IMG/VR virus record: IMGVR_UViG_3300042898_002521
Span: 1-64,000 of that record
DNA from: a virus
Length of the DNA: 64,000 bases
Strand: one strand, 5' to 3'
The notes below the pieces were generated by a model that saw only the letters and a program-made list of their open reading frames with translations, had not been told where the DNA came from and did not search any database. The position numbers were made by a program, and so were the translations under genes. Shown here one piece after another: positions 6,637 through 12,560 of this stretch. Within the stretch, counting starts at the first letter, position 1; each line of letters opens with the position of its first letter.

Positions 6637-6683
6637 GAGTGGCTACCAGTCCTGAGAGGCTGGTAGCCACTCTGCTTTTTTTT
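6637..6683 (+). terminator. intrinsic terminator
   Basis: GAGTGGCTACCAG...CTGGTAGCCACTC followed by T-run. Confidence 0.8.
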
Positions 6684-6859: not shown

Positions 6860-7036
6860 GTGAGTAGTTGCCCACGTTGTATTACAGGCATAATGCCTGA
6901 CGCACCCGCCTTGTCACGCACAGATAACAAGACTCGTATCTGTTCAGCGTGTGGGTTATTAGAGGGAATTGAGCAGTTGCTTGATTGCCTGACACCACAG
7001 TCCCAATGGGGCATTACCGTTAATCAGGGGGTGTAG
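6860..7036 (+). CDS. small zinc-finger protein, 58 aa
   Basis: manual ORF, GTG start after GAGAGG; CPRC...ALSRTDNKTRICSACG. Confidence 0.7.
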   Translation: MSSCPRCITGIMPDAPALSRTDNKTRICSACGLLEGIEQLLDCLTPQSQWGITVNQGV

Positions 7037-7038
7037 GT

Positions 7039-7251
7039 ATGGATACATCAAACCTAACCACCGAAGCCGAACACGAGCGCGACTCTGGCTTTGAGACGTT
7101 TACAGTCCGTGCCAAACTTACTATCTGGCACACAGATACAGTCCAAGCCAAAAGTATCGAGGAGGCTTGGAAGCAAGTAGATGAGTGGGTAGCCGAGGAC
7201 TTTACCGAGGACTCGGACTGCTCTAGAAGTTGGGAGATAACCGTATGTTAA
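7039..7251 (+). CDS. hypothetical protein
   Basis: ORF track; VQAKSIEEA motif. Confidence 0.7.
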   Translation: MDTSNLTTEAEHERDSGFETFTVRAKLTIWHTDTVQAKSIEEAWKQVDEWVAEDFTEDSDCSRSWEITVC

Positions 7252-7460
7252 TGAACGCAGTAGTATGCCAAAATCAGTATCGGCTTACCAAGCAAAGTTT
7301 CCAAGAGTTAATTGAGGATCAACGGGAACACGAATACGTCGTAACTGACGAAGTCTGGGAAAGGGTTGCGGGCGAAATACTTGGTCGTATGGACAATTTC
7401 GTAGAGAACCTACTAACAGAACTAGTACACGACGTAATAGACGGAGATTACGACGAATAA
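7245..7460 (+). CDS. acidic hypothetical protein
   Basis: start re-assigned to ATG 7245 (or 7251). Confidence 0.65.
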   Translation: MLMNAVVCQNQYRLTKQSFQELIEDQREHEYVVTDEVWERVAGEILGRMDNFVENLLTELVHDVIDGDYDE

Positions 7461-7465
7461 CAATC

Positions 7466-7589
7466 TTGGTTAGGGGTAACAGAGTAATCTGCAATAAAGA
7501 ACACCCAGTCCTGTCATCGAGCAGGTACGGCTAGTACCGAGCAGACTCACAGTCACGGAAGTGGCACGGCTCTCTCTACCCCTAACCAA
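7466..7589 (+). ncRNA. candidate structured RNA, solo member of the AC/CUC stem family
   Basis: 13-bp closing stem TTGGTTAGGGGTA/TACCCCTAACCAA, AC/CTC internal loop, inner helices incl. GTCAC-GGAA-GTGGC. Confidence 0.65.
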
Positions 7590-7610
7590 CCTATTAAGGA
7601 GGAAAACGCT

Positions 7611-7787
7611 GTGGACATCAGCAAACTGTTCGAAATAGTACCAAAACTGGCAGATGAACTTGTAGAACTGCATAATGCGACAGGCATTGAGTTAGAACTG
7701 TGGGATACCGCGTATGCCCTAGTCAAGGAGTTCTACCACACAGAGGAAGTGGTACAGATCATCATCAGAGACAAGATAGTTAAGTAA
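7611..7787 (+). CDS. hypothetical protein, 58 aa
   Basis: manual ORF, AAGGAGG RBS + GTG. Confidence 0.7.
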   Translation: MDISKLFEIVPKLADELVELHNATGIELELWDTAYALVKEFYHTEEVVQIIIRDKIVK

Positions 7788-7794
7788 GAAACCA

Positions 7795-7834
7795 CCCCGA
7801 GGTTGCCGAACTTGGTAGCCTCGGGGCTTTTTTT
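7795..7834 (+). terminator. intrinsic terminator
   Basis: CCCCGAGG...CCTCGGGG + T-run. Confidence 0.8.
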
Positions 7835-7929
7835 GTTTGTGTTGACCCACCCACCCTAAGCCTTTAAAGGCTGTCCCTTAATGAATTCAGCTTTTAAAAG
7901 CTGAATTGGCTTTAAAGCCAACACAAACA
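7834..7929. repeat. cloverleaf palindromic element copy E (long)
   Basis: three TTTAAA-centred palindromes inside TGTTTGTG/CACAAACA. Confidence 0.85.
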
Positions 7930-7930
7930 A

Positions 7931-7946
7931 TGTGACCAAAGTCACA
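7931..7946. promoter_or_regulatory. CRP-type box
   Basis: TGTGAccaaagTCACA. Confidence 0.65.
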
Positions 7947-8423
7947 CCGCTTAAACGGCGTGTCGGCTTGACAGAGAGAGAGGAGAGTGATAGCTGGAGA
8001 GAGCCTAACAAGCTTGGTAGCCACCCCCGATTTGACAGCTAGGCTACTGCTGTGATATGGGACAAGCCTGACCGCTTGCGTGACCAGATCAGGAGACTAT
8101 CTGCCAGTCCTGTTATGTGATAAGAGATAACAGGCTTGAGAGAGTGAGAGAGTGATAACAGGCTAGTTACTAAAGTTGTTCATAGGTGGTTCAAGTGACC
8201 TGAAGTGTATTCAATCCTCTCTCTCTATCTCTATTAGTATTTGATAGCCAATTCAGGAAACCCCCCGATCTTTATTAGATTAGGTGTTGGGACACGCCCC
8301 GAAAGCTTTGAGACTCACCCCTAGCCTAAATCCTCCACCGCCACCAGATACACCGCCAAAAATAGTTTGAGAAAACTATTGACTTTTGACCCCTATGTGT
8401 GGTATGGGATTAGTCTAAATAAA

Positions 8424-8439
8424 TGTGACGAGGATCACA
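8424..8439. promoter_or_regulatory. CRP-type box upstream of the AAA+ operon
   Basis: TGTGAcgaggaTCACA. Confidence 0.65.
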
Positions 8440-8534
8440 CTAAATCTTTTGATAATAATTATGTAATTTCACCCTTTACTGGTACGGTCTGTGTATTGGA
8501 TAAATAAAAGCTTTATGAAAGGAAGCAATCCACT

Positions 8535-9971
8535 ATGACAATCGCACTCTACGTTGAGTCCCTGTCCGAGACCATTGGTGACAATGGCGAGGCAGGTCTT
8601 GACCAAACTATTATCGTGCCAAACTACACCGTTGGCGCAGTCCAGTTATTCCACCGCACCAGTACGGGTAAGCGTGGTCGTTCCGAGGCTTGGACACTAA
8701 CGCCTCTATCTGATCTACCTAATACCCGTGTCATTAAGAACCCTGTTGCTATCCGTCTCACCGACAATGACCACTTTGCTATTCAAGGTGGCAAGGTAAC
8801 TACTTTGGGATACAAGACCACCACCGCCTCCGATCAACTTACCAAGCTTGGTGGCGATTACACTCTTAACCACTTTGATCTAGTATCAGACTTGGTATCA
8901 CGTTTCGAGAACGCCGATAATAGCCTTGCTATCTACTTGACCGACTCTCGTTACAAGGACACCTCAATCGAGTTTCCTCCTCTAGTGCCTAACCGTGCCT
9001 TTGGTAATAGTCCTGTTAGCACTTCGATCAACCCGACAATTTCCAACGTGGCAGTCCCTAACCAGCCTGTTACACCTCGCCACACCACCACACCAAGCTT
9101 GGTAATGGAATTGGCTAGTGTGCCTGACATTAAATGGGCAAAGCAATACATCAACCGCAAGGTCGTAGGTGACGTTAGTGATTTTGATATCTTTGACGTT
9201 GCTATGCGTAATGACGAGAACGTGCTTATTACTGGTCACGCTGGTTCTGGTAAGACTTCCTCGGTTATGGCTTACGCCTCGGCTCGCGGATACCGTTACT
9301 ACAACTTCTCTTGCTCGGCTGGCACGGATACCAAGAAACTATTTGGTGGATACAACCCAAGCCCAGACGGTCACTTCCATTGGCAAGACGGGGCAATAAC
9401 AGACTTGGTACGCAACGGAGGAGTCCTGCTTATCGGTGAGATTACCTTTATGCCTGAACGTACCGCCTCGGAATTGTATTCTCTATTAGATTACCGCCGT
9501 GAAATCCAACTAACGGATAAAGACGGGGAGGTTGTCAAGGCTCACCCTGATCTGCTCATTATTGCTGACGGTAATCTTGGCTATCGTGGTACGCGCGAAC
9601 TATCCCAAGCTTTCAACGATAGGTTCACACACCACCTCGACTTCCCGTATGACCCAGACATTGAGGGTAAGCTAATCAAGAGTAAGGCAATCTTGGAAAT
9701 GGCTAATTCATTACGAGACCGTTTCGAGGAGGAGGAAATCCAGACCCCGATCTCGACTCGCTCACTTGTCGCTCTAATGGGTAACATTAACAGTCTTGGT
9801 TTGGACTACGGTATCTACGCCTACCTCAACTTATTCCCAATGCGCGAGCAAGCTAGTGTCAAGTTAGTTATTGACACCTACCGCTACAACATTGAGGAGG
9901 AACTAGGTTTGGTTCACTCTGCACCTGCCGAGCCTGTTATGGAGGTGCTTAATAATGGTAATGCCAACTAA
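8535..9971 (+). CDS. MoxR/CbbQ-NirQ-NorQ-type AAA+ ATPase with N-terminal extension
   Basis: Walker A GHAGSGKT, WQDG motif, Walker B LLIGE (variant), AFNDRF arginine finger, ISTR. Confidence 0.85.
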   Translation: MTIALYVESLSETIGDNGEAGLDQTIIVPNYTVGAVQLFHRTSTGKRGRSEAWTLTPLSDLPNTRVIKNPVAIRLTDNDHFAIQGGKVTTLGYKTTTASDQLTKLGGDYTLNHFDLVSDLVSRFENADNSLAIYLTDSRYKDTSIEFPPLVPNRAFGNSPVSTSINPTISNVAVPNQPVTPRHTTTPSLVMELASVPDIKWAKQYINRKVVGDVSDFDIFDVAMRNDENVLITGHAGSGKTSSVMAYASARGYRYYNFSCSAGTDTKKLFGGYNPSPDGHFHWQDGAITDLVRNGGVLLIGEITFMPERTASELYSLLDYRREIQLTDKDGEVVKAHPDLLIIADGNLGYRGTRELSQAFNDRFTHHLDFPYDPDIEGKLIKSKAILEMANSLRDRFEEEEIQTPISTRSLVALMGNINSLGLDYGIYAYLNLFPMREQASVKLVIDTYRYNIEEELGLVHSAPAEPVMEVLNNGNAN

Positions 9972-11820
9972 GAAACCTGCTAAGTCTGCCGATACTGGCA
10001 ACCTGTACCAAGACTGGTATGACTACAACAGCACCAACTCTAGCGAGGGTCTATCCCAGATCGAGCGTGAGGAACTCAAGGATTACCTTGTGGCTAAACA
10101 GGCTAAGAAGCTTGCTAGGTTTCAGGCTATCGCTGGTGTGTACCAGACTGCGGATAGTGTGCTTACCAAAGCTAGTATTACCGTTACTGCTGGTGACTTT
10201 AGTAACCTAGAGTCAATGGGTGAAGCACCTGCGTTCAATGACGGCAAGACTATCTATCTCAACACAAACGTCTTAGCCGAGATTGACGATAACAGTCTCA
10301 TTAGCCTTAACGGTATCAACTACCACGAAGTTGCTCATATCCTGTGGTCACCGCGAGGCAACTCCGAGTTTGGGCGCAAGGTTACTAAAGGTGGATACCA
10401 AACCTCTTTCAATATCCTTGAGGACTTGCGTATCGAAACTCTTATGACCGCGCGTTTCCCAAGCACTACCCTGTCACTTACCCAGTCTGTTTTGACCTAC
10501 ATTATGGATAACCCAGACCCAAGTGACTCGTTTCCTCTAATCCGAGGTCGGCGTTACTTGCCTATCGAGGTGCGCCAACTATCTGCTGATCTCTATGTAG
10601 GTCGGCACGGCTCAACTCACGCTAACAATGTCGCTCGTATCGTAGATGAATACCGACTACTTACTTACCCAAGTGATTATGAACGTGGTTACGATCTCAT
10701 TGTTGAGTTTCATAATCTGCTCAAGCTTGCTGACCCAAAGAATAAGACCGAGGGACAATGTGGCTCACGCCCAATGCTCAAGTCTGGCAGACCTGAAAGT
10801 AACGATAAGCAAAGCAATATTGCTAATCGCGCTAAGGGTATGGACAAGAAAGCCGAGGATATCCCACCCAACGACAAGTCAGGTGCAGGTGCAGGTGACG
10901 AGGGTGAGTCCCAAGAATATGACCCACTTCAAGAACGTACCGAAATGGATACCGAGTTTGCTAACGTAGTGCGCGAGGCTATCAAAACCATTATGAAGTC
11001 CAAGCAAGTCAAGACCGAGGCTCGACAACTACGTTCTGCTATCCGTGAGTCTGACCGTGCAGGTCGTACAGACCTCAAGGCAACCTCCGATCTACTCCCA
11101 GTAGATAACGTGTACCGCGTGGCAAGCAAAGCTTTCGCACAGGAACTTAGCAAACTGCGTATTGACAGCGACCCACATTGGGATATTGAGAAACCTGTTG
11201 GTCGGCTCAATATCAACCGTGTTATGAATATGGATATTAACGATATCAACACGGTCTTTGACGAGTGGCGTGAGGGGCGTGACGAGTTTAATATCGAAGC
11301 CGTTATTATGTGCGACACATCAGGCTCTATGGGCAACGTAATCAAGGAGGTCTCTCAATCTATGTGGGCGATCAAACGTGCGCTGGAGGAAATTGACGGC
11401 AAGGTTACGGTCATTGGCTTTAGTGACAAGACCAAGCTTGTTTATGGAAGCAACGAACGTGCCACTAGCCAATACCGATTTTGGTATGACGGTGGAGGTA
11501 CTGACCCACTTGACGCTTTACTTGACGCGGAAGCAATACTTGAGTCCTCTCGGCGCAAGACTAAGTTGTTATTCGTAATCACAGACGGGGAGTGGTCACG
11601 GTCTGACGATTGTGACTCTACTATTAAGCGTATTAACAATATTGACGGCACTATTAGTCAGATTGTATTCATTAGTAGTAGTGAATACATTATGGAACAG
11701 ACCGTGACGGACAGGGAAGCCACAATGAAGCGTTACCGTCATCACGCTCACGCCATTGAGTTAGTCTCTAAGCCTAATGAACTTGTTAGTGTTGCCCGTA
11801 ACATCTTACGGAGTCTCTAA
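9955..11820 (+). CDS. vWA-domain protein with N-terminal HExxH metallopeptidase-like domain
   Basis: HEVAH, FNILED; MIDAS DTSGSM, GGGT, ITDG. Confidence 0.85.
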   Translation: MVMPTKKPAKSADTGNLYQDWYDYNSTNSSEGLSQIEREELKDYLVAKQAKKLARFQAIAGVYQTADSVLTKASITVTAGDFSNLESMGEAPAFNDGKTIYLNTNVLAEIDDNSLISLNGINYHEVAHILWSPRGNSEFGRKVTKGGYQTSFNILEDLRIETLMTARFPSTTLSLTQSVLTYIMDNPDPSDSFPLIRGRRYLPIEVRQLSADLYVGRHGSTHANNVARIVDEYRLLTYPSDYERGYDLIVEFHNLLKLADPKNKTEGQCGSRPMLKSGRPESNDKQSNIANRAKGMDKKAEDIPPNDKSGAGAGDEGESQEYDPLQERTEMDTEFANVVREAIKTIMKSKQVKTEARQLRSAIRESDRAGRTDLKATSDLLPVDNVYRVASKAFAQELSKLRIDSDPHWDIEKPVGRLNINRVMNMDINDINTVFDEWREGRDEFNIEAVIMCDTSGSMGNVIKEVSQSMWAIKRALEEIDGKVTVIGFSDKTKLVYGSNERATSQYRFWYDGGGTDPLDALLDAEAILESSRRKTKLLFVITDGEWSRSDDCDSTIKRINNIDGTISQIVFISSSEYIMEQTVTDREATMKRYRHHAHAIELVSKPNELVSVARNILRSL

Positions 11821-12560
11821 TGACTTGTGGCATAGGCGTTAAACCGAGTCGTGAAATCTCGGCAAGGACTTCCATAATAAGCACTTACTTCCTTTCAGCT
11901 TTAGAAGTACCTGCGCTTATGCCACTTACTAAACTTAGTACGCCCAACTCCCATTTACGAACGGAACGCCTGTCTGAACGCGCTATGCGTAAGAGTGACT
12001 GTGGTTCACTATTAGAACTTGGGACTCTGGGCGTACTAACAAGCTTAGTAGGCGCAACGTACAACCTGCGTTTGCATATTGCAACAATGACCGTGCCTCT
12101 GCGCCTACTAACTAACTTGGTATCAACAACGGTATCTATCCGAACCACAGAGAACACGCTACGACAGGTTGTCAGGGTTGGTAGTGCTAGATCGCTCTCT
12201 GTTGATACCAAACCCTTTAACCACGCACGTTCAGGAGTATCTTGCCTGTGTCTGGTAAGTAAAGGTCGTGGTAACTACGTTCCGCTTTGCTTATCTATGA
12301 GGTGTTTCCCTCAAATTGGAAACCGTGTTAGACGAAGCGAGCATAATAGGAGTCTCAACTTACGACCTTTACCTCGCGTGGTTAATCCCATTACTACTGG
12401 TGAGAGTGACGATACAACTACTGGTCTGTTCCAAGATGTCCTAAAGCTTACCCAACTTAGGTTGTGGTCTGCTTGTGACCGAGAGAACCACCGAACGGTT
12501 TATCCTCCGCTCTCACCAGTAATAATGCTTATCCCAACACAAACTTTTGCAGGTGCATAA
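11820..12560 (+). CDS. open frame of atypical composition overlying an RNA structure array
   Basis: 246 codons, TAATG overlaps at both ends; rich in T/L/S/R/V, no recognisable domain. Confidence 0.45.
   Translation: MTCGIGVKPSREISARTSIISTYFLSALEVPALMPLTKLSTPNSHLRTERLSERAMRKSDCGSLLELGTLGVLTSLVGATYNLRLHIATMTVPLRLLTNLVSTTVSIRTTENTLRQVVRVGSARSLSVDTKPFNHARSGVSCLCLVSKGRGNYVPLCLSMRCFPQIGNRVRRSEHNRSLNLRPLPRVVNPITTGESDDTTTGLFQDVLKLTQLRLWSACDRENHRTVYPPLSPVIMLIPTQTFAGA
11827..12526 (+). ncRNA. array of six stem-closed structured RNA domains
   Basis: 11827-11925, 11935-12039, 12045-12111, 12117-12211, 12217-12385, 12390-12526; 10-19 bp closing stems, 4-9 nt spacers; AC/CTC junction in five. Confidence 0.75.

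Follow-up and report, generated by a model that had tools for sequence, protein, structure and literature searches.

RNase III sites lie between the cistrons of the T7 early mRNA, and long-range processing stems flank the bacterial rRNAs. The T7 early sites (R0.5, R1, R1.1 and R1.3) are intercistronic elements of an early polycistronic mRNA, each a helix with a small asymmetric internal loop, and in the rRNA processing stems the helix is made by sequences that flank a structured RNA. Substrates of RNase III typically extend over about two turns of helix, a length that short helices can reach by stacking, and internal loops limit cutting to one strand, with protective 3′ hairpins left behind (PMC1540722). 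A further comparison is offered by the Y RNAs of bacteria and phages (YrlA/YrlB and Yrn1, with Ro60/Rsr proteins as partners), which are about 80–130 nt in size, have an end-formed stem, an internal loop and a variable module, and occur as several different RNAs side by side. Y RNAs are defined by adjacency to Ro60 and by a GGUCCGA-like motif in the stem (PMC4201824). The C-loop, a protein-binding motif, is an asymmetric internal loop in a hairpin-type stem, with a longer strand that starts with C (PMC9516175). Here we describe an element of 124 nt, at positions 7466–7589 on the plus strand of a 64-kb stretch of lake-phage DNA (the window), that resembles these systems in some respects and differs from them in others. 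An earlier note on this DNA had called it a solo, intergenic copy of the RNA units of an array located further downstream.

Position and fold of the solo element

The window comprises the first 64 kb of the record IMGVR_UViG_3300042898_002521, a linear genome of 87.5 kb that is about 91% complete. The public runs that contain this DNA are lake-water metagenomes, no RNA run being listed among them, and the phage is uncultured. The left 16 kb form an early region of short plus-strand transcription units with repeated promoter/palindrome modules, and these units share a recurring grammar of promoter, hairpin and terminator; the region is highly mosaic and has further palindromic junction elements. 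At 8535–11820 an AAA gene (CobS/MoxR-like) and a gene for a CobT-like vWA protein form a pair that is syntenic with Bendigovirus-type Gordonia phages. Protein identity of the pair to the Gordonia phages DalanDe (L011) and GMA6 (L012) is 26–28%, genome sizes are similar, and the shared gene order suggests that the host of the lake phage may be actinobacterial. The vWA protein had no match among PDB sequences.

The solo element is intercistronic and lies within a single promoter-to-terminator early unit. Upstream in the same unit are early genes at 6860–7036 and 7039–7251, followed by the gene for a 76-amino-acid protein (7230–7460), the stop codon of which (TAA, 7458–7460) is separated from the element by the 5-nt linker CAATC (7461–7465). 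Downstream, the ribosome-binding site AAGGAGG (7596–7602) has its first base 7 nt past the stem, leaving 6 nt between; it is followed by a 58-amino-acid gene of the ORF list, running from a GTG at 7611 to 7787, and by an intrinsic terminator at 7795–7830, all on the plus strand. The 76-amino-acid protein has 11 homologue clusters at 62–100% identity, none of which bears a family name, and searches of it against Pfam and PHROG gave no match. No plus-strand frame in the ORF list crosses the element, in agreement with the earlier description of it as lying between two genes, about 4 kb from the array (at 11827), with no coding constraint on the plus strand.

The closing stem (P1) is made by the arms TTGGTTAGGGGTA (7466–7478) and TACCCCTAACCAA (7577–7589), which are perfect complements and form 13 pairs. 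Immediately inside it an unpaired AC (7479–7480) and an unpaired CUC (CTC in the DNA, 7574–7576) form a 2 × 3 internal loop, referred to below as the handle; both halves are invariant in relatives, and the AC is common to units u1–u5 of the array. The inner helix (P2) then pairs AGAGU (7481–7485) with GCUCU (7569–7573) and ends in a U·G wobble. A third helix (P3, UCUGC/GCAGA, 7488–7492 with 7541–7545) encloses the central hairpins. Among these is a core hairpin at 7505–7527, carrying the 9-mer CCAGTCCTG, in which CCUG and CAGG (CCTG at 7510–7513 with CAGG at 7522–7525) pair across 8 nt; a GTAC/GTAC pairing around 7525–7537 rivals this hairpin for G7525. Between P3 and P2 lies the hairpin GUCAC-GGAA-GUGGC (7552–7565), which has a GNRA-type tetraloop and belongs to the window allele only, with 2 pairs in common with the allele of the relative described below. 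The 13-bp stem, AC...CTC, AGAGT/GCTCT and four small helices that had been read from the sequence beforehand were thus all present where they had been placed.

The predicted minimum free energy of the element is −44.4 kcal/mol (z = −3.67), and none of 200 shuffled sequences was as stable. The wobble pair U7485·G7569 forms on the plus strand only, the opposite strand having an A·C mismatch in its place. ARAGORN reported no tRNA or tmRNA at the site. The genome holds no second copy of the element, and there is no target-site duplication around it (flanks CAATC vs CCTAT). A search of the phage genome for antisense targets of the unit interiors gave nothing above chance-level 12-mers. Separately, we observed that CCAGTCCTG occurs three times in the window, at 6646, 7505 and 8104, always on the plus strand and within 1.5 kb, compared with 0.31 occurrences expected, a count that none of 100 shuffles reached. 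The three sites are a terminator hairpin, the core hairpin of the solo element and an ORF-free region, and the 9-mer may serve all three as a protein-binding or loop motif.

The AC/CUC handle in the downstream array

Directly after the vWA-domain gene, 4.2 kb downstream of the solo element, six stem-closed units stand in tandem on the plus strand (11827–12527). The first (u0, 11827–11925) has the stem without the handle, and the other five carry AC/CUC: u1 (11935–12039), u2 (12045–12111), u3 (12117–12211), u4 (12217–12385) and u5 (12395–12521). The handled units were located by a motif scan for, in order, a stem, AC, a helix, an interior, a helix, CTC and the returning stem. When a stem of at least 9 pairs and an inner helix were required, the 87.5-kb genome contained six AC/CTC sites on the plus strand and none on the minus strand, and the six are the solo element and the five handled array units. 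Considering all long-range stems followed by a loop and then a helix, no 2 × 3 loop identity other than AC/CTC occurred more than twice in the genome, and 0 of 20 block-shuffled genomes contained AC/CTC.

Across the family the closing stem measures 10–14 bp (up to 20 in u5), the inner helix 2–5 bp and the interior 38–144 nt, giving units of 67–169 nt, which in the array are spaced 3–9 nt apart; around the loop, u4 has 10 + 2 bp and the solo element 13 + 5 bp. The stem sequence differs in every unit. Array stems begin with UURGUA and the solo stem with UUGGUU, and the only columns that are invariant across all aligned units are the three of the CUC. Placement is alike for the solo element and the array, each starting 5–6 nt past a stop codon and ending shortly before the next ribosome-binding site. 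The solo linker CAATC also resembles the inter-unit linkers CAAGC and CTAAC of the array, and the pattern CWANCTTRGT is enriched (12 matches vs 3.4 expected); this likeness is weak, since the enrichment is mostly due to a separate palindrome.

A covariance model (R1) was trained on array units u1, u2, u3 and u5 with their relatives, the solo element being excluded. Run with the filters off, R1 recovered the solo element (7466–7589, plus strand) with exact ends and over the full model length at 18.9 bits and an E-value of about 0.02, a rough figure because the calibration was short. It was the top hit in the 64-kb window besides the training units or their reverse strands; with the default filters of Infernal it was missed. 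Local alignment of the interior of the solo element with those of u0–u5, by comparison, gave scores within those of shuffled controls. What the solo element and the array units have in common is thus the architecture and five loop bases only, and with interiors that share no sequence the solo element is a further member of the family by architecture. The proposal that it was a copy of the same RNA is therefore not upheld. The family is defined by a closing stem, a fixed 5′-AC/3′-CUC, an inner helix that is short and an interior that branches and varies freely. We consider it very probable that the solo element is a genuine structured RNA and belongs with the array units to one family.

The solo element serves as a natural control for the array, which overlaps an open frame of 246 codons, so that its conserved features could merely be side effects of coding. 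In the solo element the handle and the placement recur with no coding frame running through, which argues that the handle is a signal at the level of RNA, or at least of a specific nucleic-acid strand. The earlier suggestion of an RNA-level signal is borne out to this extent, the handle recurring on the same strand as in the array at a site free of plus-strand coding constraint.

Comparison with Rfam gave no match at gathering thresholds over the whole window, none at E-values up to 10 with permissive filters over 7300–7750, and none on the array; the known riboswitch or ribozyme that had been raised as a competing identity was accordingly not found. A catalytic or ligand-sensing RNA of a known class (a self-cleaving ribozyme or a riboswitch) that is too diverged for Rfam would share the order of stem, loop, helix and junction, which is superficially like that of twister-sister-type ribozymes and junction-type aptamers, and a riboswitch would suit the position of the solo element directly upstream of a gene. 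We give this reading very little credence. The permissive Rfam search, run up to E = 10, returned no family; P1, being a perfect helix of 13 bp, is unable to switch, and no part of the fold sequesters the ribosome-binding site. Moreover, a conserved core for catalysis or binding is missing, as the units have only five unpaired bases in common and unrelated interiors; a ribozyme or riboswitch of an Rfam class was rejected on the lack of a family match and on the three invariant alignment columns.

Several other identities were considered and set aside. A retron was rejected as the phage has no reverse transcriptase gene. An integron attC site was rejected because AC faces CUC unpaired (the R-box needs AAC/GTT) and because the units are 3–9 nt apart with no gene cassettes. 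A repeated mobile element of the MITE or REP type is excluded, as no stem sequence is common to the units and target-site duplications are lacking. The phi29 pRNA was rejected solely because no Rfam family of any kind matched and because pRNA is not known outside small phi29-like phages. A candidate unit at 8123–8232, with a weak stem of 7 bp, was also dropped, its 5′ half being deleted in the relative described below.

Other features were observed in and around the array. The palindrome ACCAAGCTTGGT and its relatives occur at 8841–8852 and 9092–9103 in the AAA gene, at 11431–11440 in the vWA gene and at 8009–8018 in the ORF-free region, and palindromes of this type also stand at the array junctions 12036–12051 and 12108–12123. 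Two of the ACCAAGCTTGGT copies form a 15-bp inverted repeat (8839–8853/9091–9105), and the palindrome may be a DNA-binding site. At the 3′ end of the vWA gene (11595–11708) there is a perfect long-range stem of 11 bp, GTCACGGTCTG/CAGACCGTGAC, which has AC inside the 5′ arm while CUC is missing inside the 3′ arm; this stem, which immediately precedes the array, may represent a unit that is degenerate or a precursor. The 246-codon frame through the array (11820–12560) is open in all three related genomes, even across an in-frame 3-nt deletion. Substitutions in it are spread near-evenly over the codon positions (18/17/28 and 22/23/32), and its peptide had no match in Pfam or PHROG; judged by this pattern, it looks like an open frame without selection at the protein level.

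Conservation and exchange in related phages

Two related IMG/VR contigs are about 90% identical to the window in this region. The first (G001/L005; 93 kb, 98% complete) has a single solo element (L005:3543–3667) and five handled units, each on the sense strand of the genes; in the second (G002) the array is present and the contig ends before the solo position. Between the window and the first relative, the stop codon, the linker, both P1 arms, AC, CUC and P2 are identical, and the interior is only about 60% identical. RNAalifold of the two alleles gave 33 common pairs, of which 5 are double compensatory and none is broken, a result that represents one comparison of two interior alleles. In P3, UCUGC/GCAGA of the window is replaced by CUCCC/GGGGG, with 3 double compensatory changes and 1 single change. 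The CCUG/CAGG core hairpin is nearly unchanged while the remaining interior has diverged. A 1-nt indel in the interior of the relative rules out an overlapping minus-strand ORF. Across the relatives, the closing and inner helices of the array units have double compensatory changes at 3 pairs and one-sided conservative changes at 5, and 1 terminal pair is broken; substitution density is 5–7% in the array stems vs 11–13% elsewhere in the array. The structure is therefore kept in the relative through compensatory changes, and the earlier suggestion that the units are modular agrees with an interior that has diverged inside identical stem arms, handle and inner helix.

These comparisons bear on the possibility that the element acts purely in cis, as a very stable intercistronic hairpin in the mRNA. 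Such a hairpin would stop exonucleases and shield the downstream ribosome-binding site from structure further upstream, and would set how strongly the flanking small genes are expressed relative to each other, neither excision nor a trans-acting RNA being involved. Its exact placement between stop codon and ribosome-binding site, with the 3′ arm 6 nt before AAGGAGG, would fit such a role, as would the very stable closing stem and the promoter/hairpin/terminator grammar from which the early units are built. A simple hairpin would suffice for this, however, and a purely cis-acting role leaves unexplained why AC/CUC is common to five other units, why a branched interior is kept by compensatory changes and why six units stand in a row before only one gene. 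We consider it rather unlikely.

Public contigs were also compared over 7100–7900, using Logan contigs from four lake studies. Two of these (X2 and X4) cover the whole stretch with zero differences, and a third (X13) covers it in three short gapped pieces, again with zero differences. A relative among the Logan contigs (X9) has 44 differences over 7104–7841 and none within 7464–7698 (235 nt), with about 6% divergence on either side. The left edge of this identity tract is 2 nt before the element and its right end 88 nt into the next gene. Since the tract covers coding sequence too, it points to recent recombination rather than to selection on the RNA.

A mosaic joint of this kind raises the question of a DNA-level element, that is, an inverted repeat or single-strand hairpin that would act in recombination, replication or module exchange. 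The element does lie at mosaic boundaries (the X9 tract at 7464–7698, and the first relative differing in the interior only), in an early region that is highly mosaic and has other palindromic junction elements. On the other hand, the handle is strictly strand-specific and the G·U pairs are A·C mismatches on the other strand, the stem sequence differs per unit and offers no common DNA word for a protein to bind, there is no target-site duplication, and the right edge of the X9 tract does not match the end of the element; duplex DNA would also offer no ready reason for the compensatory changes in P3 and other internal helices. The strand-specific handle, the G·U wobbles, the placement between stop codon and ribosome-binding site and the covarying internal helices together favour a plus-strand RNA over duplex DNA, and we regard a DNA-level function as very improbable.

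The range of the family was examined in several further collections. INPHARED phages gave no DNA match, viral contigs searched with the vWA protein, with both flanking small proteins and with 11 aligned homologues yielded only the two relatives, and metagenome scans for relatives found none. About 19 more distant contigs were retrieved via the palindromic junction arms, and in the partial stretches obtained from them, 179 kb in all, no AC/CUC units were present outside the known relative. The AAA + CobT-like loci of the Gordonia phages DalanDe and GMA6 have no such units and hold ordinary genes at the position of the array. The handle was thus found only in the window genome and its two closest relatives, and the family is known so far only in one phage lineage, with no catalogued match.

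Two additional observations concern neighbouring or more distant sequences. Two of the more distant phage contigs share an element of 253 nt (L030:6832–7084 and L031:9927–10179) with a 12-bp stem, TATTCGGGGGTT..., and AAC inside its 5′ arm, possibly a comparable RNA that is closed by a stem and has another handle. In the window, 600 nt without ORFs (7930–8530) lie downstream of a TGTGA-N6-TCACA box (7931). Parts of this region (approximately 8029–8090 and 8165–8310) are nearly identical in the first relative and better conserved than the neighbouring genes, and a GA-rich arm (7970–7990) pairs with a CU-rich arm (8211–8231), the z-score of the fold being only −1.0. Rfam gave no match over 7780–8560, and the region could encode a non-coding RNA of its own or serve as a leader.

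Recognition and processing of the units

Stem geometry and five loop bases that do not vary, around a variable inside, fit a recognition signal that brackets a payload. We tentatively favour, with confidence a little short of even, the reading that the solo element is a self-contained structured RNA module of the array-unit family, carried on an early polycistronic sense transcript, in which the stem and loop act as a recognition or punctuation signal. For the narrower statement that the handle is a signal for protein recognition or processing, we see the case as evenly balanced. The reader of the stem and loop would be a double-stranded-RNA-binding protein or nuclease, host RNase III being the leading candidate. 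What is known of RNase III substrates (PMC1540722) speaks for processing, the solo element having 13 + 5 bp on either side of a small loop. A cut at the handle would separate the upstream from the downstream cistron and free the downstream ribosome-binding site, and a compact RNA of about 100–125 nt, with the variable interior as its payload, would be released or stabilised. We infer the protein recognition, the cleavage and the function of any released RNA from the arrangement of the units.

The identification of RNase III as the enzyme is drawn by analogy with the T7 sites, and we regard it as doubtful. Folded here, T7 R0.5, R1, R1.1 and R1.3 are simple hairpins of about 60 nt that share sequence with one another and have an upper stem that is capped and about 10 bp long. 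The lake-phage units differ in having a long lower stem of unit-specific sequence, the fixed AC/CUC, an inner helix of 2–5 bp and a branched interior; the solo element has nothing like the capped upper stem of T7, its inner helix being 5 bp long and opening into a junction. The coaxial helix of 13 + 5 bp (10 + 2 in u4) would also fall short of two full turns, and no RNase III gene was found in the phage. That stem length varies across the units argues against a strict measuring enzyme.

The same stem and loop could instead dock a host or phage protein with no cleavage at the handle, the variable interior serving as a mimic or a tether, as in a Y-RNA-like scaffold or decoy. This would account for the long end-formed stem, the internal loop, the variable module and the unit sizes of 67–169 nt, and the array does follow a vWA-domain gene. 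C is the first base of the longer loop strand, a trait of protein-binding C-loop motifs (PMC9516175). The likeness of the handle to a C-loop, seen in the sequence, is a possible lead; the base triples that define the motif cannot be read from sequence, and the shorter strand here has two unpaired bases. Against a Y-RNA-like part, PF05731 (TROVE) is absent from the 87.5-kb record, control genomes having given PF05731 matches, the GGUCCGA-like motif is absent from the solo sequence and no match to the Rfam Y_RNA family was obtained; on these grounds a Y RNA proper was rejected. The phage thus differs from the Y RNA systems in lacking a TROVE protein (Ro60), a Ro-binding motif, a tRNA-like domain and an Rfam match. 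In addition, the vWA protein is CobT-like, and Gordonia phages that have the AAA + CobT-like pair are without the units. Taken together, we judge a scaffold or decoy to be clearly unlikely.

Returning to the reading of a recognition or punctuation signal, a bolder form of it is that the closing stem and AC/CUC constitute a portable RNA "cassette format", by which a phage or host protein would excise, stabilise or load any payload. We hold this form to be possible, if on the unlikely side. If it were true, the phage would make at least six different payload RNAs (the solo one and the five of the array), with fast replacement of the interior and a fixed handle, and it would have an RNA processing or presentation system without a catalogued counterpart.

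What is new here is that the handle occurs outside any reading frame, that a model trained on the array finds the solo element, and that the interior evolves as a replaceable module. The solo element is also a small, clean test object, with 124 nt, two natural interior alleles and an invariant handle. If the handle is a general signal for excision or loading, it would give the phage a compact route to several small structured RNAs from an mRNA; if it is only punctuation of the RNase III type, the T7 paradigm would be extended to freshwater phages, probably of actinobacteria, with another site architecture.
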